In this document: in pieces, positions 17,106-54,866 of the stretch
Layout of the letters: every line of letters starts with the position of its first letter
Numbering within the stretch: the first letter of the stretch is position 1
From: Nevskiales bacterium
GTDB lineage: Bacteria > Pseudomonadota > Gammaproteobacteria > Nevskiales > JBOICV01
Assembly: GCA_050740255.1 (NCBI GenBank)
Contig: JBOICV010000176.1
Location: 3,959-67,958 of the forward strand
Length of the DNA: 64,000 nt
Direction of reading: 5' to 3'
The notes under the pieces: generated by a model
The model's database searches: none
Told to the model about the DNA's origin: nothing
The model's input: only the letters and a program-made list of their open reading frames with translations
Translations under genes and position numbers: made by a program

Positions 17106-18055
17106 GCGCAAGCGCTGACACGGGCAACCTGGCCCGCATACTGCAAATCCTGCTCGGCGCAGAAATCGCGCTCGCTTTGTTCATCGCCTGGCTGTGCTGG
17201 CTGTCGTTGCTACCCGGTAAGGCGATGCTGGTGTGGGCGCTGACGCCTTATGTGCTGATCCGCGCGGGAATTCTGGCGCGCGGTTTCCAGCTGGCCTATA
17301 AACACCGTTCGCCGCTCAGCGCCCAGCATCGGCCGAGCCCTTTGAGCTGGGCGCGCGTGGTGGTGGGTGAATACGTCGCCGTGCTGATGCACTACTCGGG
17401 CCTGCTGCCCTTCGAGCAGTGGCTGCTACCGTCCGCACCGCAACCGGCTTTTTCCGGCAAGGGCGTGCCGGTGGTGCTGGTGCATGGTTTCTGCAGCAAC
17501 CGGGCCTGCTGGTACTTTTTCGCACGCTGGCTGCACAAACTGGGTGTCGGGCCGATTTATGCGGTAAGCCTGGAACCGCTGCTGGGCACCATCGAGGACA
17601 ATGCGACCCGGCTGGCGCCGCTCATCGAACAGATTTGCGAGACCAGCAAGCATCCGAAAGTGATGCTGGTCGGGCACGATATCGGCGGGCTTGTTGGGCG
17701 CGCACTTGTTCACTCCAGCTTTGGTGTCAAGCGTCTGGCGCGCGTCGTCACGCTGGGCAGCCCGCATCACGGCAGCATGGTGATTGAGGGCATTCAACAA
17801 TACGGCGAAAATCTGCGACAGATCACGCTCAAGAGCAACTGGACCGAACGCATGAGCGTGTTTGAACGCGCGCCCAGCCCGGTGCCGATCACCAGCCTGA
17901 TCTCGCCGCAGGACGAGGTGATTGCGCCGCAGACCAGCGCGGTGCTGCGCTATCCCAATGCGCAGAATCTGGTGCTCAAAGGCATCGGCCACTACGAGAT
18001 GTTGCTGTCGCGCAAAGTCGTGCGCATGGTCGCCCAAGTATTGCAGCAAGTCTGA
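17102..18055 (+). CDS. membrane-anchored alpha/beta hydrolase (lipase class-2/PGAP1-like layout) with Asp at the nucleophile elbow
   Basis: Two N-terminal TM helices. PVVLVHGFCSN oxyanion strand, then VMLVGHDIGGLVG where GHSxGG would be expected. Confidence 0.7.
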   Translation: MSASADTGNLARILQILLGAEIALALFIAWLCWLSLLPGKAMLVWALTPYVLIRAGILARGFQLAYKHRSPLSAQHRPSPLSWARVVVGEYVAVLMHYSGLLPFEQWLLPSAPQPAFSGKGVPVVLVHGFCSNRACWYFFARWLHKLGVGPIYAVSLEPLLGTIEDNATRLAPLIEQICETSKHPKVMLVGHDIGGLVGRALVHSSFGVKRLARVVTLGSPHHGSMVIEGIQQYGENLRQITLKSNWTERMSVFERAPSPVPITSLISPQDEVIAPQTSAVLRYPNAQNLVLKGIGHYEMLLSRKVVRMVAQVLQQV

Positions 18056-26742: not shown

Positions 26743-26964
26743 ATGATTGATGCCGCCCTTATCTCGAAGGTCAAGACGCTCAGCGTCGCTGATCGCCTTG
26801 AGCTGATTGGGGCCGTGTGGGATTCTCTCGCGGCGAATGAAGCCCCAGTAACTGAATCGGAAAAGGCCTTGCTGGATGCGCGGCTGGCGGACCTCACAAA
26901 AAACCCTGCCGATCAGAGCCCCTGGTCCGAAGTTCAGGAGCGACTTCGCCGGCTCCTAGCTTGA
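26743..26964 (+). CDS. putative addiction-module antitoxin component
   Basis: 73 aa. LSVADRLELIGAVWDSL......SEKALLDARLADL pattern. Directly precedes and overlaps a ParE/RelE toxin gene. Confidence 0.75.
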   Translation: MIDAALISKVKTLSVADRLELIGAVWDSLAANEAPVTESEKALLDARLADLTKNPADQSPWSEVQERLRRLLA

Positions 26965-27260
26965 GGCACACCGTCCATGTCCGCCGGGCGGCCGAGCTTG
27001 ACGTGGCGGAAGCTCAATACTGGTATGAGAAGCAGCGGCCTGGGTTAGCCGCCGAGTTCCACGCCGAATTCGTGCAGGCCATCGGTCGCCTTACCGAGAC
27101 GCCCCTCTTATATCCCGCTGTCTACCGCGGAGTACGCCGCGCGGTTCTTCACCGCTTTCCGTTTCTCGTCTGGTATCAGGTTCACGATTCGAGCATTACG
27201 GTACTCGCGTGCACACACGGCAAGCTCAATCCCAGGAAGCTTGCTGCCCGTTTGCGGTAA
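26961..27260 (+). CDS. RelE/ParE-family type II toxin
   Basis: 99 aa. AELDVAEAQYWYEKQRPGLAAEF...YRGVRRAVLHRFPFLVWYQVHDSSITVLACTHG. TTG start in a TTGA overlap with the antitoxin stop. Confidence 0.8.
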   Translation: MRHTVHVRRAAELDVAEAQYWYEKQRPGLAAEFHAEFVQAIGRLTETPLLYPAVYRGVRRAVLHRFPFLVWYQVHDSSITVLACTHGKLNPRKLAARLR

Positions 27261-29136: not shown

Positions 29137-29144
29137 AAATTTCT

Positions 29145-29185
29145 CCCCTCTCCCCGCGCGGCGGGGAGAGGGTCAGGGTGAGGGG
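29145..29185. repeat. GC-tract REP-like hairpin / canonical G4 motif
   Basis: CCCCTCTCCCC (29145..29155) pairs with GGGGAGAGGGT (29163..29173). GGGGAGAGGGTCAGGGTGAGGGG occupies 29163..29185. Confidence 0.7.
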
Positions 29186-29943
29186 CGGCTATTCTACGCA
29201 GCTCTGCTGCACTGCGCCATTGTCTGACCGGCTTTGCCAAAAAAGCCTCACAGCCCTTAGGCGAGATTTACCCGCTGCGGCAGCGCGGGCTCAGGTATAG
29301 AGTAAGAATCCCATCCCCGACGTCGCTATCGCTAGGACAGCCATGCCCGAGCTCAATGTGTTGGTGGTAGACGATTCCAGTACCGCTCGCTTTGCGATGC
29401 GCAAGTACCTGGAGCATCTGCACAATCTGGTGCAGACCGCAGCCAGCGCGATGGAGGCCTATGACTATCTGAAAGATCATCAGCCTGACGTGATCTTTCT
29501 GGACAATGTCATGCCGGAAATCAGCGGACTTGAAGCGCTGTATACCCTGAAGCACGATGCAAAGACCGCTGTCATCCCGGTGATCTTCTGTACCTCCATT
29601 GGGAGAACCGAGTTCATCGAGCGTGCCCGCGCCTCCGGCGCGCTACAAGTCTTGCACAAACCCCCCAGTCTGGATCAGCTTTCCAGGGTGCTCGCTGACA
29701 TCCAGGCGCAGCCGACGCCGGCGCCAGCTTCGCGGCCGGTAGCGAGCACCACGCCGGCGGCCAACGATCAACCTGAGGCGCAGGGGCCTGGAGGCCAGCG
29801 AGCGACCGCTGCCGCCGACCTGCTACCGCCTGAGGCGGCCGGTGGTCGCTATGCTGAGTTGCGCGGACAGATTGACACCGGTATGGACTGCCCACGGTCT
29901 GATAGACATTCCCGGCCTATGATTTAAGCATAGCAGGAAGTCC

Positions 29944-30228
29944 ATGAGTACCCAGCGTTTCACGCCTGAATTTAAGGAAGAAGCCGTTCGCCAGATCGTT
30001 GACCGCGGCTATTCGGTTGCAGAAGTTTCATCTCGACTCGGCGTTTCCGCGCATAGCCTTTACAAGTGGGTGAAGTCGGTCACTCCGCACAAGAGCGAGA
30101 AGCAAGCTGCGGAATTGATCGAATCAAAAAGCGAAGTATTAAAGCTGCGCGCGCAACTGCGCCGCACCGAAGAAGAGCGAGACATCCTAAAAAAAGCGGC
30201 GCGGTACTTTGCCAGGGAGCCCGAGTAA
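29944..30228 (+). CDS. IS3-family transposase OrfA (HTH)
   Basis: MSTQRFTPEFKEEAVRQIVDRGYSVAEVSSRLGVSAHSLYKWVK plus a leucine-zipper-like tail. Slippery A AAA AAA G at 30189..30196. Confidence 0.9.
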   Translation: MSTQRFTPEFKEEAVRQIVDRGYSVAEVSSRLGVSAHSLYKWVKSVTPHKSEKQAAELIESKSEVLKLRAQLRRTEEERDILKKAARYFAREPE

Positions 30229-31079
30229 AGTACCGCTTCGTCAATGAACATCGGCATGAATTCCGGATCGTCACGATGTGTCGTGTGCTGAGGGTTTCCC
30301 GCGCGGGGTTTTATCAATGGCTGCATAGGCCGTTGTCGGATCGAGCCATCGAAGACCAGCGGCTCCTCGTGCTGATTCGCGCTTCCTACTCGGCCAGCGG
30401 CAGCGTATACGGCGCGCGGCGTGTATTCGGTGATTTGCGGGAAGCCGGTGAGACCTGCGGCAAGCATCGTGTCGCTCGCATCATGCGGATGAATAAAATC
30501 AAGGCTCTGCATGGCTACAAAATACCCCGATCCATCGTCGGGCGACCGTCCATTATTGCGCCCAATCGGCTCAATCGGGAGTTCAATGTCGATGCACCTG
30601 ATCGGGTCTGGGTGACCGATATCACCTATCTGAGGACCTGGCAGGGATGGCTGTACCTGGCGGTGGTGATGGACCTCTATGCACGCAAGATCATCGGCTG
30701 GTCGATGAAGCCGACCTTGGCGCGCGAGCTGGTGCTCGACGCGCTGCTGATGGCGCTCTGGCGTCGTAAGCCGCAGCGGCCGGTGCTCGTGCATTCAGAT
30801 CAGGGCAGCCAATACGGTAGTGACGATTGGCAGCGCTTCTGCCAGACCAACAACCTGGAGCCCAGCATGAGCCGGCGCGGCAACTGCTGGGACAACGCCG
30901 TGGCCGAGTCTTTCTTCAGCAGCTTGAAGAAAGAGCGCATCCGCAAGCGCATCTACAAAACGCGCGAGTTGGCTCGTGCCGATGTCTTCGACTACATCGA
31001 GGTCTTCTACAATCGAACCCGCCGACACAGCCATATCGGTGGCGTCAGCCCCGAGGCATTTGAACGTGCCTCACTTTGA
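30195..31079 (+). CDS. IS3-family transposase OrfB (DDE integrase core), expressed by -1 frameshift as OrfAB
   Basis: Lies in the -1 frame relative to orfA with no start codon of its own near the junction. WVTDITY...VHSDQGSQY...DNAVAESFF DDE motifs. Confidence 0.88.
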   Translation, partial: SGAVLCQGARVKYRFVNEHRHEFRIVTMCRVLRVSRAGFYQWLHRPLSDRAIEDQRLLVLIRASYSASGSVYGARRVFGDLREAGETCGKHRVARIMRMNKIKALHGYKIPRSIVGRPSIIAPNRLNREFNVDAPDRVWVTDITYLRTWQGWLYLAVVMDLYARKIIGWSMKPTLARELVLDALLMALWRRKPQRPVLVHSDQGSQYGSDDWQRFCQTNNLEPSMSRRGNCWDNAVAESFFSSLKKERIRKRIYKTRELARADVFDYIEVFYNRTRRHSHIGGVSPEAFERASL

Positions 31080-31480
31080 GGCTGGGGTATGTCTACGATT
31101 CCGTGGGCAGTCCAGTATGCGCAAGCTCACCGATGAGATCTTCGTGCAGCTGTCCGAACTCAAGCAGCAGATTACCCATCTCGACCCGGCCGGTCTGACC
31201 CGACAGGAGGTTGAAGCGGTGCGCCGGATCGCACGCGAGGAGACGGACGCCCTGCATCAGGCGGTGCGAGCCGAACTGGATGCGGTGCGCACACGTCTGG
31301 AGGCGATTACGCGTATGCAGGAAGAAGAGTATCAGCGGATGCTGACAGTGGTGCGCGAGATCGCGGCCGCCGAAGCCAATTCGTTCAAGGACAGCACGCT
31401 TAAGGAGGCTACCGCGCGGATCACGGAGCGGCTGTCCCACTCAATCCTGCGTGCGCTCGGCCGCGAGGTCTGACGCGCGT

Positions 31481-32158
31481 CTAGCCGCTTTTTACCGCCG
31501 GCTCACCCAGAACGACCGCGCCGCGGTCGGCCTGCCAATGCGCCGCACCGAGAAAAATCAGCCGGATTTGCTTGATGATGCGCACCGTCAATTCCTGCTC
31601 GCGCCGGTTCTGAGCGCCTTTTTCCCGCTGCGGCAGTTGCAGGATTTCCCCGGCCTGGGTGAGGGCGGTGTTGATCACCAGATCCGCGATCATCTCGCGG
31701 TCCTCGGCGGGAAACCCGCCCATTGGCGGGAATAAGCGCAAATCCTCCGCCAGCTCGCCCACAAAGAAACGCACCTCGCGATTGATCGCTTCGCGCACGC
31801 GCGCATTGGCGCCGCCGCGCTCCTGCGCGAGGATTTCGAAAGCGCGCGGATTGGCGCGGACGAAGTCCAGAAAAATCTGCACCGAACTCTGGATCACGAA
31901 ATGCGGTGAACCAAGCGCCGTTACGCGGGCCTCGCGCAGCAAGCGCCGCAAAGTCAGCGTCACCTCATCCACCAGCGCCAGCATCAACTCGTCCATATCG
32001 CCGAAATGGCGGTAGAAAGCGGTCGGCACGACGCCGGCCTCGCGCGTTATTTCGCGCAGGCCGAGGCTCGCCAAGCTGCGTCCACCGCCGGCCAGTTTGA
32101 GGGCGGCCTGCAGCAGGCTTTGCCGGGTTTGTTGCTTGCGCTCTTCACGCAGGGTCAT
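31481..32158 (-). CDS. desT: TetR-family repressor, DesT/FabR-like
   Basis: QTRQSLLQAALKLAG..RSLASLGLREITREAGVVPTAFYRHFGDMDELMLALVDE parallels E. coli FabR. Divergent from a desCB-type pair. ATG 32158 behind GAGGAA. Confidence 0.8.
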   Translation of the reverse strand: MTLREERKQQTRQSLLQAALKLAGGGRSLASLGLREITREAGVVPTAFYRHFGDMDELMLALVDEVTLTLRRLLREARVTALGSPHFVIQSSVQIFLDFVRANPRAFEILAQERGGANARVREAINREVRFFVGELAEDLRLFPPMGGFPAEDREMIADLVINTALTQAGEILQLPQREKGAQNRREQELTVRIIKQIRLIFLGAAHWQADRGAVVLGEPAVKSG

Positions 32159-32189
32159 GTGGTTTTCCTCACCCAAAAGCATAGCATGA

Positions 32190-32321
32190 GAGAACATTTG
32201 TTCACAGAACATAAATCCAGTGAGACTATAAGTTATTGTTTGTAGAAGATATAAATAAATGAGTGAACACGTGTTGACTTATTGTTATGAGGACTGCATA
32301 CTTAGTGCACACTTGTTCACT
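32190..32321. promoter_or_regulatory. three ACA-N2-TGT-core palindromes in the desT/desC divergent promoter (putative DesT operators)
   Basis: GAACATTTGTTC (32192..32203), AGTGAACACGTGTTGACT (32262..32279) and AGTGCACACTTGTTCACT (32304..32321). The region is markedly AT-rich. Confidence 0.6.
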
Positions 32322-32326
32322 AGTGA

Positions 32327-33463
32327 GTGAATGACATGACCCAGACCCAGCCTCGCCCCAGCCCCCGTCCCAATATCCTCAAGACCGGCTTGCGCCGCGC
32401 GCTCAGCTCGCGCATTGCAGCGACGCTGACCTATCCCCACGGCGTGGACCGCTACCTGGCGCAGTTTGACCCAAACTGGTCGCTGCGCGAAGTACGCGCG
32501 GAGCTGACCGCGGTGCGCTACCAGACCGCCGGCAGCGTCACCCTGACGCTGCGCCCCAACAGCAACTGGCAGGGCTTCAAGGCCGGCCAGTATGTGCGCC
32601 TGACGGTCGAGATGGACGGCGTACGCCGCATGCGCTGCTACTCGCCCGCCAATTCGGTGCACGCCAAGGACGGCCTGATTGAACTGACCGCCAAGGCGCA
32701 CGCCGGTGGTTTTGTTTCAAAGTTCCTGCGCGACGAGGCCCAGCCCGGCATGGTGGTGACCCTGTCGCGGGCCGACGGCCAGTTCGCGCTGCCGGCACAG
32801 CGGCCGGAACGCATCCTGCTGATCAGCCGCGGCAGCGGCATCACGCCGGTGATGTCCATGCTGCGCACGCTGTGCGATGAGGGCCACCAGGGCCGCATCA
32901 CCTTCCTGCACTACGCCAATGTGGCGCAGGATCAGATCTACGCAGCGGAGCTGGCCACGATTGCGCGCTGCTATCCCAACGTCGAGCTGCTGCGCTGCTA
33001 CAACGGCCCCGGCGGCGAGCTTACGGGATTGTTCAGCCAGCAACAGTTGCAGCAGGCCGTGCCGGACTACGCGCAGGCGCAGGCTTTTCTCTGCGGGCCG
33101 CCGGGGATGATGAAGGCGGTGCAGAAAGTCTGGGCCGACGCCGGCATCAGCGAGCGCCTGTTTCTCGAACATTTCACCGTCACACCCATCGTGCTGGCCG
33201 CCGGCAATGCCGAGGGTGAGGTGCGTTTTGCGCGCAGCGAACGCCTGGCCAAGAACAGCGGCAACACGTTGCTGGATCAGGCCGAAGCTGCGGGCCTCAA
33301 GCCCGAAGCCGGTTGCCGCATGGGCATCTGCCATACCTGCACCTGCCGCAAAACTTCCGGCACGGTGAAGAACCTCCAGACCGGCCAGCTCTCCAGCGAA
33401 GCCGACGAGGAGATCCAGATCTGCATCAGCGTGCCGGTCGGCACCGTGACGCTCGACCTCTAA
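32327..33463 (+). CDS. desC: ferredoxin-NAD(P) reductase-type oxidoreductase with C-terminal 2Fe-2S domain (DesC-like)
   Basis: RCYSPANS (FAD), GSGITPVMS (NAD), CRMGICHTCTC...C (plant-type 2Fe-2S). Start is GTG 32327 or ATG 32336. Confidence 0.85.
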   Translation: MNDMTQTQPRPSPRPNILKTGLRRALSSRIAATLTYPHGVDRYLAQFDPNWSLREVRAELTAVRYQTAGSVTLTLRPNSNWQGFKAGQYVRLTVEMDGVRRMRCYSPANSVHAKDGLIELTAKAHAGGFVSKFLRDEAQPGMVVTLSRADGQFALPAQRPERILLISRGSGITPVMSMLRTLCDEGHQGRITFLHYANVAQDQIYAAELATIARCYPNVELLRCYNGPGGELTGLFSQQQLQQAVPDYAQAQAFLCGPPGMMKAVQKVWADAGISERLFLEHFTVTPIVLAAGNAEGEVRFARSERLAKNSGNTLLDQAEAAGLKPEAGCRMGICHTCTCRKTSGTVKNLQTGQLSSEADEEIQICISVPVGTVTLDL

Positions 33464-33502
33464 ACCACGCACTAAACCTTGAATCACGAAACCGAATCCG
33501 CC

Positions 33503-34621
33503 ATGACATACCACGTCCCCCAACTCAGCCCCGAGCAGTTCGAAGCCTTTGGCAAGGAACTGGATGCGGTGCGCCAGCGCGTGCTCGCCGACCGCGGCGA
33601 GCGCGACGCCAACTACATCCGCAAGATCGTGAAGGCGCAGCGCCGGATCGAAGTCGGCGGCCGCGTGATGATGATGGTCCCGCCGGCCTGGCCGCTGGGC
33701 GTGGCCGCACTGTCCGTGTCGAAGATTCTCGACAACATGGAGATCGGCCACAACATCATGCATGCCCAGTACGACTTCATGCAGGACCCGGCGTTCAACT
33801 CCAAGAAATTCGAATGGGACCACGCCTCCACCAGCAAGCAATGGCTGCATTCGCACAACTATCTGCACCACACCTTCACCAACGTCCGCGGTGTCGATCG
33901 CGACATCGGTTACGGCGTGCTGCGCATGTCGGAAGCCCAGAAGTGGCACCCGTACTATCTGCTCAACCCGGTGTGGGCGTTCCTGCTGGCCACGTTCTTC
34001 GAGTACGGCATCTCCATGCACGACCTGGAAGTGGAGAAGGTCTGGAAGGGCAAAAAGTCGCGCGCTGAAATAGCCCAGTGGTTCCGTGACACCGCGGGCA
34101 AGCTGCGCAAGCAGTTGGTCAAGGACTACGTGCTGTTCCCGGTCGTGGCCGGCCCGATGGCGCCGCTTGTCCTGGCCGGCAATTTCGCGGCCAACCGCCT
34201 GCGCGACTACTGGACCTGGGGCATCATCTTCTGTGGCCACTTCCCCGAGGGCACGCAGGAGTTCTCCAAGGACTACATCAAGAACGAGACGCGCGGCCAG
34301 TGGTACTACCGGCAACTGCTGGGCTCGGCCAACATCGAGGGCGGCAAGCTGTTCCACATCATGAACGGCAACCTCAGCTTCCAGATAGAGCATCACCTGT
34401 TCCCTGATCTGCCGGCGCACCGCTACGCGGAGCTGTCGGTCGAGGTCAGGGAGATCTGTCAGCGCTACGGGCTGCCGTACAACTCCGGCTCGTTCGTCAA
34501 GCAGTTCGGCACCGTGGTGCGCAAAATCTTCCGGCTGTCGCTGCCCTCGCGGAAGGATTTCAAGCTGAAGGGGCGGACGGCAGCGAATGATGCGGCGCAG
34601 CCGCTGCCGATGGCGGCCTGA
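33503..34621 (+). CDS. desB: membrane acyl-CoA desaturase, DesB/DesA3-type
   Basis: His boxes HNIMH, HSHNYLHH and QIEHHLFP. Hydrophobic hairpins. Immediately downstream of the reductase. Confidence 0.85.
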   Translation: MTYHVPQLSPEQFEAFGKELDAVRQRVLADRGERDANYIRKIVKAQRRIEVGGRVMMMVPPAWPLGVAALSVSKILDNMEIGHNIMHAQYDFMQDPAFNSKKFEWDHASTSKQWLHSHNYLHHTFTNVRGVDRDIGYGVLRMSEAQKWHPYYLLNPVWAFLLATFFEYGISMHDLEVEKVWKGKKSRAEIAQWFRDTAGKLRKQLVKDYVLFPVVAGPMAPLVLAGNFAANRLRDYWTWGIIFCGHFPEGTQEFSKDYIKNETRGQWYYRQLLGSANIEGGKLFHIMNGNLSFQIEHHLFPDLPAHRYAELSVEVREICQRYGLPYNSGSFVKQFGTVVRKIFRLSLPSRKDFKLKGRTAANDAAQPLPMAA

Positions 34622-34712
34622 GCGTCAGTTCGGCTCGGTCATCGGCCGCATTTTCAAGTACAGTCTGCCGACGCCCCGTGAGACGGCGGCCGCGGCTGCC
34701 TGAGGATTGGAT

Positions 34713-35099
34713 ATGCGCACCACGCTAAGCCGGCTGGAAGCCATCAAGGACCTGGTCCAGGAAGCGATAGACAAGGGCGCGACTTCGGTCGAGCAGATTC
34801 ATCGCGCCATCGCAGACTTGCCGTTTGCGGCGCTGGAGCGGGGCGGCCTGCTGCGCGAGCCTAAGCCACGCGAAGTCGTGGGTCAAAGCATCGGCGTGGT
34901 GTATGACGCGATCCGCCGCGTGAACAGCGAGGTCGGCGGGCTCGTAACCGGCTTGTTCGAATCGCTGGACGATCATGCCGACGCCCAGACCACGCTGAGC
35001 CGCAAGCAATTGAGCGAGGCGCTGGATACCGCTTTCGATAAAGAAGCCGCCACGCTTGAGCCCAAAGGAAAAAAAGCCAACAAGCGCCGCAAGTCCTGA
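34713..35099 (+). CDS. hypothetical helical protein with basic C-terminal tail
   Basis: 128 aa from ATG 34713 (GAGG Shine-Dalgarno). No family recognised. Ends KGKKANKRRKS. Embedded between desaturase module 1 and module 2. Confidence 0.55.
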   Translation: MRTTLSRLEAIKDLVQEAIDKGATSVEQIHRAIADLPFAALERGGLLREPKPREVVGQSIGVVYDAIRRVNSEVGGLVTGLFESLDDHADAQTTLSRKQLSEALDTAFDKEAATLEPKGKKANKRRKS

Positions 35100-35129
35100 G
35101 CGCATTGCGCTCTGAACGAGGAGGGGATC

Positions 35130-36245
35130 ATGCAGCCCAGTCCAATGGAATCGCCACGCTCGCTGTGGGGCCGGTTGACCGCGATCACGGATCTTTTTGC
35201 TTATCCGCTGCGAACCTCGCACTACGTCGAACTGGTCAACCCGCTGTGGACCACGCACAAACTGCAGGCGCGGGTGGTCAAGGTCTGGGACGAAACCAAG
35301 GACGCGCGCACGCTGACGCTCAAGCCCGGCCTGAACTGGCGCGGCCACCGCGCGGGGCAGCATGTGCGCGTGGGCATTCCGGTCGGCGGCATGCATTACA
35401 CGCGCACCTACACGATCTCTTCACCGCCGGAGCGTGACGACGACTGCTTTACCATCACCACGAAAGCGATTCTTGGCGGGCGCATCTCGCATCACATCGT
35501 GCGCCAGATCAAGGTGGGCGATTACCTGCCCATCGGTCTGCCGCAGGGCGATTTCTATCTGCCGGACGCACAGCCGGTGCAGCCGCTGTTCATCACCGCC
35601 GGCAGCGGCATCACGCCGGCGATGAGCATGCTGCGCAGCCTGATCGCGCAGGAGCGCCTGCCGGATAGCGTGCACATCCACTACTCGCCGCATGAGTTCG
35701 ACGTGATTTTCGGCCAGGAGCTGCGCCAGACGGCGCGCGAGCAGCCGCGCTACAAGCTGCACGAGATTCACACGCACGAGTACGGCGAGCTGAAGCAGAC
35801 CAAGGGCTATTTCAACGACGAGCAGCTAAACCGTCTATGCCCGGACTGGCGCGAGCGCGAGGTCTATGCCTGCGGGCCGCCGGGCCTGCTGGCCGCGCTG
35901 GAGAAGCACTTCGAGCAGGCCGGACGTACGCGCCATCTGCACATCGAGCGCTTCCTCGCCAGCTTCGCCGAAGTGCCCAAGGACGCCGTCGGCGGCCGCG
36001 TGCGCTTCGCCAAGAGCAATATCGAAGCGCAGGCGGACCACAAGACGCCGCTGCTGCGTGTGGCCGAGGATGCCGGCATGAATCCGCCGCATGGCTGTCG
36101 CATGGGCATCTGCCACACCTGCAACACCACGCTGGTGTCCGGCTGCGTGCGCGACTTGCGTACCGGCAAGATTCTGAACGAGGCCGGCAGCATCGTGCAG
36201 ACCTGCATCTGCGCCGCCGCCGGCGATTGCGCACTCGATCAGTAG
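35130..36245 (+). CDS. second FNR-type reductase with 2Fe-2S domain (DesC paralog)
   Basis: RTYTISSPP, GSGITPAMS, CRMGICHTCNT...C. GAGGAGG Shine-Dalgarno. Confidence 0.85.
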   Translation: MQPSPMESPRSLWGRLTAITDLFAYPLRTSHYVELVNPLWTTHKLQARVVKVWDETKDARTLTLKPGLNWRGHRAGQHVRVGIPVGGMHYTRTYTISSPPERDDDCFTITTKAILGGRISHHIVRQIKVGDYLPIGLPQGDFYLPDAQPVQPLFITAGSGITPAMSMLRSLIAQERLPDSVHIHYSPHEFDVIFGQELRQTAREQPRYKLHEIHTHEYGELKQTKGYFNDEQLNRLCPDWREREVYACGPPGLLAALEKHFEQAGRTRHLHIERFLASFAEVPKDAVGGRVRFAKSNIEAQADHKTPLLRVAEDAGMNPPHGCRMGICHTCNTTLVSGCVRDLRTGKILNEAGSIVQTCICAAAGDCALDQ

Positions 36246-36255
36246 AGATGAAGTC

Positions 36256-37413
36256 GTGACCACGAGATTCGGCGTAAACCTCAGCGACGCGCAGATCGAG
36301 GAATTCGGCCGCGAGGTGGATGCCATCCGCGACGAGGTTTTCGATAGCCGCGGCGAGCGCGACCGACAATACATCCTCAAAATCATCAGAACCCAGCGCG
36401 TACTGGCCTTGGGCGGGCGCGTGGTGATGTTCCTGAGCATCTGGCTGCTACCCGCCATCGGACTGCCTTACGCCGGCTGGCCGCAGTTGCTGGCCGTGCT
36501 CGGTCTGGGCGCGGCGCTGCTGGGTCTGGCCAAGATCATCGAGAACATGGAGATCGGCCACAACGTCATGCACGCGCAATGGGACTGGATGAAGGACCCG
36601 GAAATCCAGTCCAGCACCTGGGAGTGGGACAACGTCTGTCGCTCCGACCAGTGGATGCACAGCCATAACGTCGTGCATCACACCTGGACCAACGTCATCG
36701 GCAAGGATCCGGACGTGGGCTACGGCGTGCTGCGCGTGAGCACTGCGCAGCGCTGGCGGCCCAAGTTCCTGGCGCAGCCGCTCGTCAATATCCTGCTATG
36801 TCTGTTCTTCCAGTGGGGCGTCGGCGCGCACGACATCTTGTTCGCGCACAAGACCGGCGCCGGTTCGAAAAAGGTCCTGCTGCGGCGCTTCGCGTGGAAG
36901 GCTTGGCGACAGGTGCAGAAAGACTATCTGCTGTGGCCGGCCTTCGGCGCGCTGCTGACCGCGCTGGCCTGCTGGGCGATGGGCAAGGATGCCAGCACCG
37001 CAGCGCTGCCAGCCCTGGGCCTGCTGGTGGCCGGCAGTTTCATCGCCAATACGCTGCGCAACGTCTGGACCAACGTCATCATTTTCTGCGGGCACTTTCC
37101 GCAGGGGGTTCATCACTTCCGCAAGAAGGACGTCGAGGGCGAAACCCGTGCGCAGTGGTATGTGCGGCAGTTGCTGGGCTCCTGCAATATCGGCGGCGGC
37201 AAGCTCTTTCACATCCTCTCCGGGAATCTGAGCCACCAGATCGAACACCACCTGTACCCGGACATGTGCAGCAACCGCTATCCGGAGGTCGCGCCGCGTA
37301 TCCGCGCGCTGGCGTCCCGCTACGGCCTGCCGTACAACACCGGCTCGCTGGCCCGGCAGTACGGCACGACCACCTGGACTATCTGGCGGCTGGCGTTTCC
37401 GGGCGGCGGCTGA
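36256..37413 (+). CDS. membrane acyl-CoA desaturase, DesB-type paralog 2
   Basis: HNVMH, HSHNVVHH, QIEHHLYP. GTG start 10 nt after the reductase stop. Confidence 0.85.
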   Translation: MTTRFGVNLSDAQIEEFGREVDAIRDEVFDSRGERDRQYILKIIRTQRVLALGGRVVMFLSIWLLPAIGLPYAGWPQLLAVLGLGAALLGLAKIIENMEIGHNVMHAQWDWMKDPEIQSSTWEWDNVCRSDQWMHSHNVVHHTWTNVIGKDPDVGYGVLRVSTAQRWRPKFLAQPLVNILLCLFFQWGVGAHDILFAHKTGAGSKKVLLRRFAWKAWRQVQKDYLLWPAFGALLTALACWAMGKDASTAALPALGLLVAGSFIANTLRNVWTNVIIFCGHFPQGVHHFRKKDVEGETRAQWYVRQLLGSCNIGGGKLFHILSGNLSHQIEHHLYPDMCSNRYPEVAPRIRALASRYGLPYNTGSLARQYGTTTWTIWRLAFPGGG

Positions 37414-37451
37414 CGCGTAACTGAACGAATTGGATTTGTGAGGCAAAAATC

Positions 37452-38642
37452 ATGACCGCCGCAAGACTTCCCGCCAAATTACCAGTGGGGCTCACCGAAG
37501 CCCAGATCGAGGAGTTCGGCCGCGAGCTGGACGCGATCCGCGACGAGGTAATGGATTCGCGCGGCGAGCGCGACCGCGCCTATATCCTGAAGGTGATCAA
37601 GACCCAGCGCAGCCTGGCGGTGATCGGCCGCTTCATCATCTACGGCGGGTTGTTCCTGCTGCCGGCCTGGGGTCATGCGCTCGCCGGATGGGCGAGCAGC
37701 CTTTCGGTGATCGGGCTGGGCACCGCGATGCTGGGCATCGCCAAGATTCTGGAGAATATGGAGATCGCCCACAACATCCTGCACGCGCAATGGGACTGGA
37801 TGAAGGACCCCGAAATCCAGTCGAACACCTGGGAGTGGGACACGATGTCGCCTTCCGATCGCTGGATGCACTCGCACAACGTCGTGCATCACACCTGGAC
37901 CAATGTGCTGGAGAAGGACCTGGATGTCGGCTACGGCATCATGCGCGTCACGCCGATGCAGAAGTGGCACCCCTTTTACCTGCTGCAACCCCTGTTCTTC
38001 ATCACGCTCATGCTGTTCTTCGAAGAGGGCGTCGCCCTGCATGAACAGGCGATAGACGATCACATGAAGGGCAAGAAGACGCTGAAGGAAATCCTGCCGA
38101 CCCTGCGCCATATCGGCCGCAAGGTGCGCGGGCAGGTGCTCAAGGACTACGTGATGTGGCCCGGCGCCGCCCTGCTGGTCAGCATTCCGATCTCGTTTTA
38201 CGTGCCTGCTTCACCCTGGCTGGCGTTCGGGCTGGTGGCGGGCGCGAATGCGGTCGCCAACATCATGCGCAATATCTGGGCCTTCATGATCATCTTCTGC
38301 GGCCACTTCCCGGCCGGCGTGCACAACTTCACGCAAGATCAGGTTGAAGGCGAAACCCGCGCGCGCTGGTATCAGCGCCAGTTGCTGGGCTCCTGCAACA
38401 TCGGCGGCGGAAAACTATTCCATGTGCTGTCCGGAAATCTGAGCCACCAGATCGAGCATCACCTGTTTCCGGACATGTGCAGCAACCGTTATCCTGAGGT
38501 GGCGCCGCGGGTGCGCGCGCTGGCCGCCCGCTACGGCTTGCCTTACAACACCGGTTCACTCACGCGGCAGTTCGGCACCACCTGGCTGAAAAATCTGCGA
38601 CTGGCGTTTCCGGGCGGCGAGCTCCAACCGACGCCTGCCTGA
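37452..38642 (+). CDS. membrane acyl-CoA desaturase, DesB-type paralog 3
   Basis: HNILH, HSHNVVHH, QIEHHLFP. By eye about 60% identical to paralog 2. Confidence 0.85.
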   Translation: MTAARLPAKLPVGLTEAQIEEFGRELDAIRDEVMDSRGERDRAYILKVIKTQRSLAVIGRFIIYGGLFLLPAWGHALAGWASSLSVIGLGTAMLGIAKILENMEIAHNILHAQWDWMKDPEIQSNTWEWDTMSPSDRWMHSHNVVHHTWTNVLEKDLDVGYGIMRVTPMQKWHPFYLLQPLFFITLMLFFEEGVALHEQAIDDHMKGKKTLKEILPTLRHIGRKVRGQVLKDYVMWPGAALLVSIPISFYVPASPWLAFGLVAGANAVANIMRNIWAFMIIFCGHFPAGVHNFTQDQVEGETRARWYQRQLLGSCNIGGGKLFHVLSGNLSHQIEHHLFPDMCSNRYPEVAPRVRALAARYGLPYNTGSLTRQFGTTWLKNLRLAFPGGELQPTPA

Positions 38643-38705
38643 ACCGTCCTACGAGGCGGTGGAATCACCGCAGGCTTCCCCAGGCTTTGTGTATCATGCA
38701 GGCCC

Positions 38706-39380
38706 ATGCCTGGGCCCAAAGATCTGCTCGCCAACAATCGCAAGTGGGCTACACAGCGACGCGCGGCAAATCCTGAATTTTTCGCGCGGCTGGCGCAGGC
38801 CCAGCAACCGGACTATTTATGGATCGGCTGCTCGGATGCAAGGGTGCCGGCCAACGAATTAATCGGCCTGCCGCCCGGCGAAGTGTTCGTGCAGCGTAAT
38901 CTTGGCAACCAGTTCTTTCCGCACGACTTCAACGCGGTGGCGGTGTTGCAGTTCGCGGTGGAGGTACTCAAAGTGCGGCATGTGATCGTCTGCGGCCACT
39001 ACGGCTGCGGCGCGGTCAACGCGGCCATGCATCACGCCGCGCCGGGCCGCGGACTGGACGCCGTCAAACGCTGGATCACCGACATCCGCCGCACCCGCAT
39101 GCGCTCGCGCAAGGAATTGCTGCGCCTGGATCCCGCCGCCTGCCGGGACCGGCTGTGCGAGCTGAACGTGATTCAGCAGGTGGAGTACTTGCGCGCCTCG
39201 CCCGCCGTACGTGGCGCTTGGGCGCGTGGACAGAAGCTGTCCGTGCACGGCTGGATTTATCATCTGGAAGACGGTCTGCTGCAAGACTTGAGCGTGACCG
39301 TGAGCGGGCTCAAGGACAAGCCGCTGCGTTTCGCGCGCGAGGCAAAAACCGAAGCACCGCTCCGCCGGCGAGCGAAATAG
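38706..39380 (+). CDS. beta-class carbonic anhydrase
   Basis: LWIGCSDARVPANE...VFVQRNLGN...VIVCGHYGCGAV zinc-ligand pattern. Confidence 0.88.
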   Translation: MPGPKDLLANNRKWATQRRAANPEFFARLAQAQQPDYLWIGCSDARVPANELIGLPPGEVFVQRNLGNQFFPHDFNAVAVLQFAVEVLKVRHVIVCGHYGCGAVNAAMHHAAPGRGLDAVKRWITDIRRTRMRSRKELLRLDPAACRDRLCELNVIQQVEYLRASPAVRGAWARGQKLSVHGWIYHLEDGLLQDLSVTVSGLKDKPLRFAREAKTEAPLRRRAK

Positions 39381-39397
39381 GCGTTGAGGGATGCCCG

Positions 39398-39455
39398 TTC
39401 CCCCTAGAGGGGGAAGTCCCACCCCCACCCTGACCCCCCCCTCAAGGGGGAGGGA
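39398..39455. repeat. GC-tract REP-like palindromes between convergent genes (likely bidirectional terminator region)
   Basis: TTCCCCCTAGAGGGGGAA (39398..39415). C-runs at 39418..39441. CCCCCCTCAAGGGGG at about 39435..39450. Confidence 0.65.
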
Positions 39456-39457
39456 AC

Positions 39458-40240
39458 TTACTTCCCGGAGAATTTGCCCGGCCGGCGCTCCATGAAAGCG
39501 CGCAAGCCCTCCTGCATATCTTCGGATTTCATCAGCGGAATCAGATCGGGCAGCAGCCGCGCAAAGGCGGCATCTTCGCCCTGCCGGCGTACCAGGCGCG
39601 CGGATTTCAGCGTCGCGTAAACGCCGAGCGGCGCCTGCGCGGCGATGGTCTGGGCGATTTGTAACGCGCGTTCCAGTTGCTTACCCGGCTCCACCACTTC
39701 CTGCACCAGTCCCAGGCGCAGCGCTTCGGCCGCGTTGATTTCATCTGCCGTCAGCAGATAACGCATGGCATTGCCCCAGCCGACTTCCTGAATCAGCCGC
39801 ACGGTAGCGCCGCCGACGGGATAAATGCCGCGCTTGACCTCAATCTGGCCGAAGCGGGTATCAGACGCGGCGACGCGGATGTCGGTGGCGAGCAGCAGTT
39901 CAATGCCCAGCGTCAGACAGAGGCCTTGCACGGCCATGACCAGCGGCTTGCTGACGCGCCTGGCATCGTCGGCGCCGAGGGGATCGAGCCCGCCCGGCGG
40001 CGGATCGGGGAATTTCCCCGCGGAAAACGTCGCCGCCCATTTCGGCAGGTCGAGGCCGCCGGTGAAATGATCGCCGTGCGCGAACAACAAGCCGCAGCGC
40101 AGGTTCTGATCCTGCTCAAGCTGGCCGTAGGCCGCGCCGAGCTCCTGATACATCTCCAGATCGAAGGCGTTGCGCTTTTCGGGCCGGTTGAGGCCGATCA
40201 GCAGGACTTGACCACGGACTTCAGTAGTAACTTTGCTCAT
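39458..40240 (-). CDS. enoyl-CoA hydratase/isomerase (crotonase) family protein
   Basis: LLIGLNRPEKRNAFD...FTGGLDL...crotonase fold. Start at ATG 40240. Confidence 0.85.
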   Translation of the reverse strand: MSKVTTEVRGQVLLIGLNRPEKRNAFDLEMYQELGAAYGQLEQDQNLRCGLLFAHGDHFTGGLDLPKWAATFSAGKFPDPPPGGLDPLGADDARRVSKPLVMAVQGLCLTLGIELLLATDIRVAASDTRFGQIEVKRGIYPVGGATVRLIQEVGWGNAMRYLLTADEINAAEALRLGLVQEVVEPGKQLERALQIAQTIAAQAPLGVYATLKSARLVRRQGEDAAFARLLPDLIPLMKSEDMQEGLRAFMERRPGKFSGK

Positions 40241-54172: not shown

Positions 54173-54212
54173 ATACGGCTGTAATAAAGCTGTATCTCGG
54201 ATAAGGATATTG

Positions 54213-54866
54213 ATGAAACCGGCTGATCTAGCCACTAGCGCAACTTCCGCCCGCAAGACCCATATCGGGCGGGAAGATTTGATTGCGGCTGCGCTGAAAC
54301 TGCTGGGCCCGCATCGCAGCGTCTCGACGCTGAGCCTGCGCGAGGTGGCACGCGCGGCCGGCATCGCCCCGAACAGCTTTTACCGGCACTTCCGCGATGT
54401 GGACGAGTTGGCGGTCGCGCTGATTGACCAGGCCGGCGCCAGCCTGCGCAAAGTCATCCGCGAGGCGCGCCTGCGCATTTCCAAGGGCGAAGGCAGCGTG
54501 ATCCGGCCTTCGGTCGAAGCCTTCATGGACCAGTTAGAGGCGGACAAAAAACTGCTGCACATCCTGATGCGTGAAGGCACGGTCGGCTCCAACGCCTTCA
54601 AGCAGGCGGTGGAGCACGAGCTGCGGCACTTTGAAGAAGAGCTGCGCGTGGACCTCATCCGCCTCTCGGCCGCCAACGGCGACCCGATTTACCGCCCGGA
54701 GCTGGTCGCACGCGCCATCACCCGCCTGACCTTCGCCGTGGGCGGCGCCGCCATGGACTTGCCGGCCGAGCAGCGCGCCCTCATCAAGGAAGACATCGTC
54801 GAGATGGTCAAAATGATCATGGCCGGCACGCAGACGCTCGCCGCCACCGAAGGTGCGCAGGCCTAG
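54213..54866 (+). CDS. fabR: TetR-family repressor FabR-like
   Basis: LSLREVARAAGIAPNSFYRHFRDVDELAVALIDQAGASLRKVIREARLRISKGEGSVIRPSVEAFM is near-collinear with E. coli FabR as I recall it. Confidence 0.82.
   Translation: MKPADLATSATSARKTHIGREDLIAAALKLLGPHRSVSTLSLREVARAAGIAPNSFYRHFRDVDELAVALIDQAGASLRKVIREARLRISKGEGSVIRPSVEAFMDQLEADKKLLHILMREGTVGSNAFKQAVEHELRHFEEELRVDLIRLSAANGDPIYRPELVARAITRLTFAVGGAAMDLPAEQRALIKEDIVEMVKMIMAGTQTLAATEGAQA

Follow-up and report, generated by a model that had tools for sequence, protein, structure and literature searches.

In a 64,000-nucleotide stretch of DNA from a Nevskiales bacterium (contig JBOICV010000176.1 of assembly GCA_050740255.1, positions 3,959 to 67,958 of the forward strand; hereafter the window), we examined a block of seven genes at positions 31481-38642 that encodes a DesT-like transcriptional regulator, two reductases (Red1 and Red2), three membrane desaturases (Des1, Des2 and Des3) and a small protein (Orf130). 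The regulator gene is divergent from the other six, which are co-directional and form a first module, Red1-Des1-Orf130, followed by a second, Red2-Des2-Des3. A six-frame call of open reading frames (ORFs) placed all seven genes at the coordinates and on the strands given in an earlier note on this DNA, and the ORF listing, Pfam and alignment also reproduced the His boxes, gaps and identities reported there. The gene families proposed in that note, namely a DesT-like regulator, FNR/2Fe-2S reductases and DesB/DesA3-type membrane desaturases, were confirmed by Pfam, NCBIfam and PDB matches. Features and positions are collected in Table 1.

Table 1. Genes, predicted regulatory sites and inserted segment of the desaturase block, in window positions.
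Feature	Position	Strand	Basis or remark
DesT/FabR-type TetR-family regulator	31481..32158	-	NCBIfam FabR; Pfam TetR_N and TetR_C_46; PDB DesT 3lsj; divergent from Red1
Operator-like palindrome A, AGAGAACATTTGTTCACA	32189..32206	.	Two mismatches to AGTGNACANNTGTNCACT; upstream of regulator gene
Operator-like palindrome B, AGTGAACACGTGTTGACT	32262..32279	.	One mismatch to AGTGNACANNTGTNCACT; overlaps -35 hexamer TTGACT
Sigma-70-like promoter candidate for Red1, TTGACT-17-CATACT	32274..32302	+	Consensus match
Operator-like palindrome C, AGTGCACACTTGTTCACT	32304..32321	.	Exact match to AGTGNACANNTGTNCACT; between -10 hexamer and Red1 start
Red1, FNR-type FAD/NAD(P)H reductase with C-terminal 2Fe-2S ferredoxin domain (DesC/Rv3230c-like)	32327..33463	+	Pfam; motifs; tree
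Des1, membrane acyl-CoA-type desaturase, clade A (DesT-linked / actinobacterial DesA3-like)	33503..34621	+	PF00487; His boxes; tree
Orf130, conserved small helical protein, 128 aa, third gene of DesT-linked operon	34713..35099	+	Homolog family; synteny; AF2 model
Inserted cassette Red2-Des2-Des3 with short flanks	35057..38683	+	Absent from collinear relative L093 (blastn, junctions read)
Red2, FNR-type reductase with 2Fe-2S domain, Des3-partner lineage	35130..36245	+	Three Pfam domains; motifs; tree
Des2, membrane desaturase, clade B	36256..37413	+	PF00487; His boxes; orthologs in Stenotrophobium, Solimonas, Stagnimonas
Des3, membrane desaturase, clade C	37452..38642	+	PF00487; His boxes; orthologs at 73-91% identity

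The regulator scores 167 bits against the NCBIfam FabR equivalog, whose cut-off is 151, and its residues 22-232 match the DesT structure of Pseudomonas aeruginosa (PDB 3lsj, E=1e-35), its best solved relative. Its ATG at 32158 is preceded by a GAGGAAAA ribosome-binding site; the mechanical ORF extends to 32212. Both reductases carry the Pfam domains FAD_binding_6, NAD_binding_1 and Fer2 and have the motifs RxY[ST], GSGITP and Cx4Cx2C...C intact (RCYS, GSGITP and CRMGICHTC...C in Red1), and they share 34% identity. Among the desaturases, the boxes HNxxH, HSHNxxHH and QIEHH are invariant in a 15-sequence alignment (HNIMH, HSHNYLHH and QIEHH in Des1). Des2 and Des3 are 61.8% identical, close to the 60% estimated by eye in the earlier note, and both are further from Des1 (47.5% for Des1/Des2 and 47.2% for Des1/Des3). 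The same note had raised the loss of His ligands from Des2 and Des3, but the ligands are kept on alignment, and the ratios of non-synonymous to synonymous substitution rates (dN/dS) against orthologs are 0.11-0.13 for Des2, 0.09 for Des3 and 0.09-0.13 for Red2, Des2 and Des3 together. These three genes evolve under purifying selection, and the conserved His boxes and low dN/dS rule out that Des2 or Des3 is a dead paralog. Intergenic gaps are 30 nt between Orf130 and Red2, 10 nt between Red2 and Des2 and 38 nt between Des2 and Des3; those between Red1 and Des1 (15-39 nt) and between Des1 and Orf130 (85-91 nt) vary with the start chosen, alternative TTG starts of minor importance being present at 33479 for Des1 and at 34707 for Orf130. 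No relative of Des3 with a solved structure was found by sequence search.

We used neighbour-joining (NJ) trees with 200 bootstraps to place the desaturases and the reductases among homologs from other loci, which are referred to by L numbers. Clade A (100% bootstrap) unites Des1 with regulator-linked Alcanivorax genes and with genes of Mycobacterium and Nocardia, to whose desaturases it is 57-59% identical. Des2 falls into clade B (85%), in which window_D2, L009_D2 and L013_D1 form a subgroup with 100% support; its orthologs are 84-87% identical in close relatives and 71-73% identical in Stenotrophobium, Solimonas and Stagnimonas, and those of Stenotrophobium and Solimonas have their own upstream reductase in 1:1 pairs. 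Des3 falls into clade C and is 73-91% identical to its orthologs in Nevskia, Solimonas, Acinetobacter, Alcanivorax, Marinobacter and Moraxellaceae; one metagenomic relative, Nevskia ramosa and Acinetobacter carry the ortholog in a plain reductase-desaturase pair. Red1 groups with the reductases of regulator-linked Mycobacterium and Nocardia loci (100%). Red2 groups with L005_R2, L009_R2 and L013_R1 (80%), and this group is nested within Acinetobacter and Alcanivorax reductases that partner Des3-type genes (100%). The Stenotrophobium, Solimonas and Stagnimonas reductases that partner Des2-clade genes form a separate clade (98%), which has no representative in this block.

By their positions in the trees, Des1, Des2 and Des3 are members of three old clades rather than local duplicates. 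The earlier note had described the array as a duplicated and diverged version of a known system, and this description does not hold, because each of the three clades has its own orthologs in 1:1 pairs elsewhere. The adjacency and 62% identity of Des2 and Des3 could still be taken as signs of local duplication and divergence of a single reductase-desaturase pair, and true tandem duplicates do exist, as in Nocardia L055, whose two desaturases are sisters with 100% bootstrap. Des2 and Des3, however, are closer to orthologs in other genomes (84-91%) than to each other and lie in separate clades with taxa in which each has a reductase of its own; the two reductases of the block, at their low mutual identity, likewise belong to different clades, and the entire second module is missing from an otherwise collinear relative. 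On these comparisons the duplication model is already contradicted by the data, and we regard it as highly improbable.

This relative, L093 (GCA_975200385.1), has the layout TetR<>Red-Des-Orf130-carbonic anhydrase and is collinear with the window across the genes for BipA, the regulator, the reductase, the desaturase, Orf130, carbonic anhydrase, enoyl-CoA hydratase, an SGL-like protein and an FMN dehydrogenase. In blastn comparison, window positions 34622-35056 correspond to L093 9910-10350 and positions 38684-39382 to L093 10428-11141, and just two window segments are without an L093 counterpart at the DNA level, 29137-31513 and 35057-38683. The latter contains precisely Red2, Des2 and Des3 with short flanks, and its absence from L093 indicates that the second module is an inserted cassette, so that the array is better described as a juxtaposition than as a duplication. 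The gene for a beta-class carbonic anhydrase (38706-39380) that lies co-directionally and directly downstream of the block is the one that follows Orf130 in L093. We considered a plasmid or mobile origin for the cassette and rejected it: direct reading of the junction sequences showed no repeats or mobile-element remnants at its borders, megablast against plasmids returned short desaturase fragments and nothing else, with no plasmid counterpart of the region, and the GC content at third codon positions of the cassette (0.83-0.86) is in line with that of its neighbours. The other segment contains an IS3-family element (29884-31114, absent from L093). Its transposase ORFs span 29944-30228 and 30066-31079, and its two ends carry inverted repeats of 30 nt (29884-29913 and 31085-31114), which are 83% complementary; the element apparently lies within or at the 3' portion of a response-regulator-like ORF (29343-29927).

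Comparison with L093 also bears on the first module. The regulator and Orf130 are 80% and 83% identical between the two genomes, but for the enzymes encoded between them the values drop to 40% (reductase) and 53% (desaturase), the stretches compared being window 32327-34621 and L093 7776-9991, and the window Red1-Des1 pair is closer to the pair of L005 and to a Mycobacterium pair than to that of L093. A conserved frame of regulator and Orf130 around divergent enzymes implies that the enzyme pair of the first module may have been exchanged as well, which suggests cassette replacement within a stable operon frame. Other relatives show further arrangements. L177 has regulator<>R1-D1-R2-D3-Orf130, L005 has regulator<>R1-D1-R2-D3-hydrolase-Orf130, and L009/L010 have R1-D1-R2-D2-D3 followed by genes for a hydrolase, a cNMP-binding protein and a WS/DGAT protein; R2-D2 stands alone in L013, L096 and L176, and R2-D3 stands alone in L007. 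The position of the cassette relative to Orf130 differs between genomes, so at least two independent rearrangements must have taken place. The array is a rare rearrangement of well-known parts and no new kind of system.

The second module departs from the usual ratio of one reductase gene per desaturase gene. The earlier note had proposed that its single reductase serves two desaturases, and the comparative data favour this proposal. Red2 is 85-89% identical to reductases of L005, L009, L013, L096, L176 and L177, and this ortholog precedes Des2 alone in L013, L096 and L176, Des3 alone in L005 and L177, and both in the window and L009/L010; in L009 the Red2 and Des2 genes overlap by 4 nt. The combinations give good comparative support to the view that Red2 may serve both Des2 and Des3. 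We surveyed gene layouts in a sample, not exhaustive, of 107 loci flanked on each side by 1.5 kb or more, coding the regulator as T, reductase as R, desaturase as D and Orf130 as o. Among the loci listed, 79 of the 107 were plain R-D pairs and 10 were T<>R-D; T<>R-D-R-D occurred four times, T<>R-D-o twice, and T<>R-D-R-D-o (L177) and T<>o (L094) once each. The R-D-D arrangement was present in any form in six (the window, L009/L010, two Alcanivoracaceae loci, L025 and L027, and one Nocardia locus, L055), and the remaining four were lone desaturases (three) or had a split reductase (one). Judged from the clades involved, the R-D-D layouts among the loci listed have at least three independent origins.

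We scanned the block for regulatory sites by crude consensus matching. The region of 168 nt between the divergent regulator and Red1 genes holds three sites that match AGTGNACANNTGTNCACT (Table 1). The exact 20-mer at palindrome C occurs once in the window (chance expectation 0), and the promoter-like match for Red1 is the sole one in 31000-39500. The operator motif recurs between the regulator and reductase genes at 15 other loci, and related palindromes are found in the corresponding intergenic regions of Stagnimonas, Alcanivorax, Mycobacterium and others. Elsewhere in the window, the sole other operator match (at 17697, with 3 mismatches) lies inside a coding region. A second operator was looked for upstream of Red2 and none was found; the scans likewise gave no promoter-like site or terminator between Orf130 and Red2 and no plus-strand terminator in 31000-39500. 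These negative results suggest that the second module is probably read through from the DesT-controlled promoter.

The reading that we consider rather probable is that the block combines two modules for the aerobic desaturation of acyl chains, both of the DesT-DesC-DesB / Rv3230c-DesA3 kind, of which the second was inserted, shares Red2 between its desaturases and is expressed by read-through. The first module would be the ancestral resident, with its repressor divergent from Red1-Des1-Orf130 and three operator palindromes flanking the single promoter-like site, and the second (roughly 35057-38683) a compact cassette placed between Orf130 and the carbonic anhydrase gene. Red2 would hand electrons from NAD(P)H on to the di-iron centres of Des2 and of Des3; these two enzymes, coming from two different old clades, probably prefer different chain lengths or positions. 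Read-through from the DesT-controlled promoter would place all three desaturases, presumed to act on acyl-CoA, under acyl-CoA-responsive control.

Several observations weigh against this reading. Several NJ nodes are modestly supported (28-80%), and a promoter may lie inside Orf130. The AlphaFold2 (AF2) model of Des2 (predicted local distance difference test score, pLDDT, 81.9; predicted template-modelling (TM) score 0.83) had no match at E<=0.001 when compared with the PDB by Foldseek; its best PDB matches had probabilities of 0.99-1.0 yet TM scores of 0.43-0.50 and E values above 0.001, and AlkB (8f6t) had a probability of 0.63. Red2-type cassettes also lie away from any DesT gene in L007, L013, L096 and L176, and those of L007, L013 and L176 must then be expressible alone. 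This last point belongs equally to a competing explanation, that the juxtaposition is incidental and Red2-Des2-Des3 forms a self-contained operon, transcribed from a promoter of its own under separate regulation and functionally independent of the DesT module. L009/L010 have no regulator gene upstream of their array, and the cassette follows Orf130 here but precedes it in L177 and L005, which points to repeated reshuffling. An independent operon is harder to reconcile with the mere 30 nt that separate the Orf130 stop from the Red2 start and with the lack of any promoter-like site or terminator found there. Moreover, the first module adjoins a Red2-type module in at least four configurations (the window, L005, L177 and L009/L010), and a regulator-linked module is accompanied by a second module in Stagnimonas L014 and in the metagenomic L098 and L104 too, the reductases there being of the distinct Des2-partner type. 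This recurrent adjacency suggests that clustering is favoured, and we consider an autonomous cassette possible but doubtful.

The earlier note had listed Orf130 as an orphan ORF, but it proved to belong to a conserved family that is a regular component of these operons. It has no Pfam or NCBIfam match above threshold; homologs nevertheless fall into 58 clusters by word search and 754 clusters at 50% identity by HMMER (E<=1e-3). Its AF2 model (pLDDT 85.5) has three helices and no PDB fold match at E<1. A spurious ORF is ruled out by the 754 homolog clusters, a dN/dS of 0.10 and the confident helical model. A lipid-droplet protein of the phasin or apolipoprotein type was considered as well and found no family or fold support: sub-threshold matches among family members were to DUF6781 in 10 of 31 and to ApoLp-III in 2 of 31, and the name phasin appears on just two JGI records among the homologs.

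In the loci fetched, the Orf130 profile has eight strong matches, one of them in the window, and each is either next to a DesT-like regulator gene or downstream of a desaturase gene. The gene follows the desaturase in L093 and L095 and stands further downstream in L177 and L005. In Paraperlucidibaca L094 (7312-8303), the only gene of this set facing the divergent DesT-like regulator is an Orf130 homolog; an operator-like palindrome separates the two, and neither reductase nor desaturase is present, an arrangement that suggests that Orf130 may itself be a member of the DesT regulon. The profile also weakly matches small ORFs directly downstream of the desaturase in Nocardia, an actinobacterial metagenome-assembled genome and an Alcanivoracaceae locus. 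Such remote homologs, which follow regulator-linked desaturases (L044 11120-11488, L058 11134-11454, L086 11169-11483 and L066 11041-11355), are without the middle segment of about 32 residues of Orf130, and profile-profile comparison by hhalign relates them to it with a probability of 93.8% (E=1.7e-7). As judged from this synteny, Orf130 is the usual third gene of DesT-linked operons.

The acyl-CoA substrate assumed above may be asked about separately. Des2 and/or Des3 might instead act on alkanes, fatty alcohols or wax-ester/triacylglycerol precursors and have a link to storage-lipid or hydrocarbon metabolism, which we think unlikely. Des3 orthologs are concentrated in hydrocarbon-degrading or wax-ester-forming taxa (Alcanivorax, Marinobacter, Acinetobacter and Nevskiales), and in relatives the cassette adjoins genes for WS/DGAT and a PGAP1-like hydrolase (L009/L010, L176 and L005); this taxonomy and these lipase-like and WS/DGAT neighbours hint at such a link. 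In the window itself, however, no WS/DGAT gene was detected, and a PGAP1-like query gave one weak match (17390-17791, 27% identity, E=5e-6) about 14 kb upstream of the block. An over-expressed Rhodococcus reductase-linked "acyl-CoA desaturase" was reported in 2026 to convert hexadecane to cis-hexadecene, which leaves room for substrates other than acyl-CoA, but about 1% was converted and the evidence for a direct mechanism comes from modelling (PMC13304129). Des2 and Des3, for their part, are 45-50% identical to the DesA3-type clade and have all of its His boxes. The flanking genes of the relatives, which code for the PGAP1-like hydrolase, a cNMP-binding protein and a WS/DGAT wax-ester/triacylglycerol synthase, lie at L009 12460-15620, L176 1-689 and L005 11191-12414.

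The block resembles the desT-desCB system of P. aeruginosa (PA4890-PA4888), in which DesB depends on DesC and DesT, responding to acyl-CoA saturation, acts as the repressor of desCB (PMC10634369). Shared features are a divergent DesT/FabR-type TetR repressor, an FNR/2Fe-2S oxidoreductase gene followed by that of a membrane desaturase with His boxes, and palindromic operators in the divergent promoter. In contrast to P. aeruginosa, here Orf130 follows the desaturase, a one-reductase/two-desaturase cassette of other clades lies downstream, and no second operator target of the fabAB type was seen in the window. The counterpart in Mycobacterium tuberculosis, Rv3230c-Rv3229c, is a two-protein reductase-desaturase operon (bioRxiv 10.1101/2022.04.26.489556), in which DesA3 is a stearoyl-CoA Delta9 desaturase. 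The regulator-linked pair of Mycobacterium L069 clusters with Des1 (59% identity) and Red1 (48%) in clades with 100% bootstrap, whereas Des2 and Des3 lie outside the DesA3-type clade. The pairs of Acinetobacter, Alcanivorax, Marinobacter and Nevskia share with the second module the order of reductase then desaturase; Des3 is 73-91% identical to homologs from these and related taxa, and Red2 is 73-79% identical to the partner reductases. The desaturases of the pairs are annotated as acyl-CoA, linoleoyl-CoA or NADPH-dependent stearoyl-CoA 9-desaturases. These loci are simple 1:1 pairs, whereas here the clade-B Des2 lies between the reductase and Des3.

Similar in layout are the Alcanivoracaceae loci L025 and L027 and Nocardia L055, each with one reductase followed by two co-directional desaturases and, in Alcanivoracaceae, a DesT-like regulator. 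Their origins are independent of the one described here; L055 has a recent tandem desaturase pair, and the second desaturase of L025 and L027 comes from yet another clade. A paper on Acinetobacter baumannii ABVal2 mentions a pair of desB genes located together with a desT homolog and an oxidoreductase gene (PMC11448061). Unlike the present block, none of these four loci has two reductases and three desaturases, and none is characterised. A putative operon of Rhodococcus sp. KSM-B-3M comprises co-expressed genes for a ferredoxin reductase, an acyl-CoA desaturase and a small hypothetical protein (PMC13304129), an order that parallels Red1-Des1-Orf130 in layout. The parts of the block are thus known, its three-desaturase architecture is a rare and uncharacterised variant, and current understanding is not overturned.

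Two further ORFs of the window may be recorded. A second TetR-family ORF (54174-54866) weakly resembles the DesT-like regulator (106 bits with a single-sequence profile), and a 99-aa ORF at 26961-27260 resembles a ParE/RelE-type toxin by eye.

Genomes with several desaturases are common, and reductase-dependent acyl-CoA desaturases (DesCB, DesA3/Rv3230c) have been studied as 1:1 pairs. The locus and its relatives constitute a natural series, in which the same reductase ortholog occurs with a clade-B desaturase, a clade-C desaturase or both, and this series lends itself directly to testing how promiscuous the reductase and how specific the desaturases are. The Orf130 family, which travels with DesT-type operons across Gammaproteobacteria and, remotely, Actinobacteria, is a candidate for a missing component in desaturase function or regulation. 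A more ambitious version, which we offer with little confidence, is that Red2 is the shared donor for two desaturases of different specificities, that their products extend beyond those of a single Delta9 enzyme and that the Orf130 family, with its remote actinobacterial homologs, is an unrecognised and widely conserved accessory to reductase-dependent desaturases. If a shared Red2 and differing specificities are true, the block might yield di-unsaturated chains or unusual positional isomers, or desaturated alkanes or fatty alcohols for wax esters.

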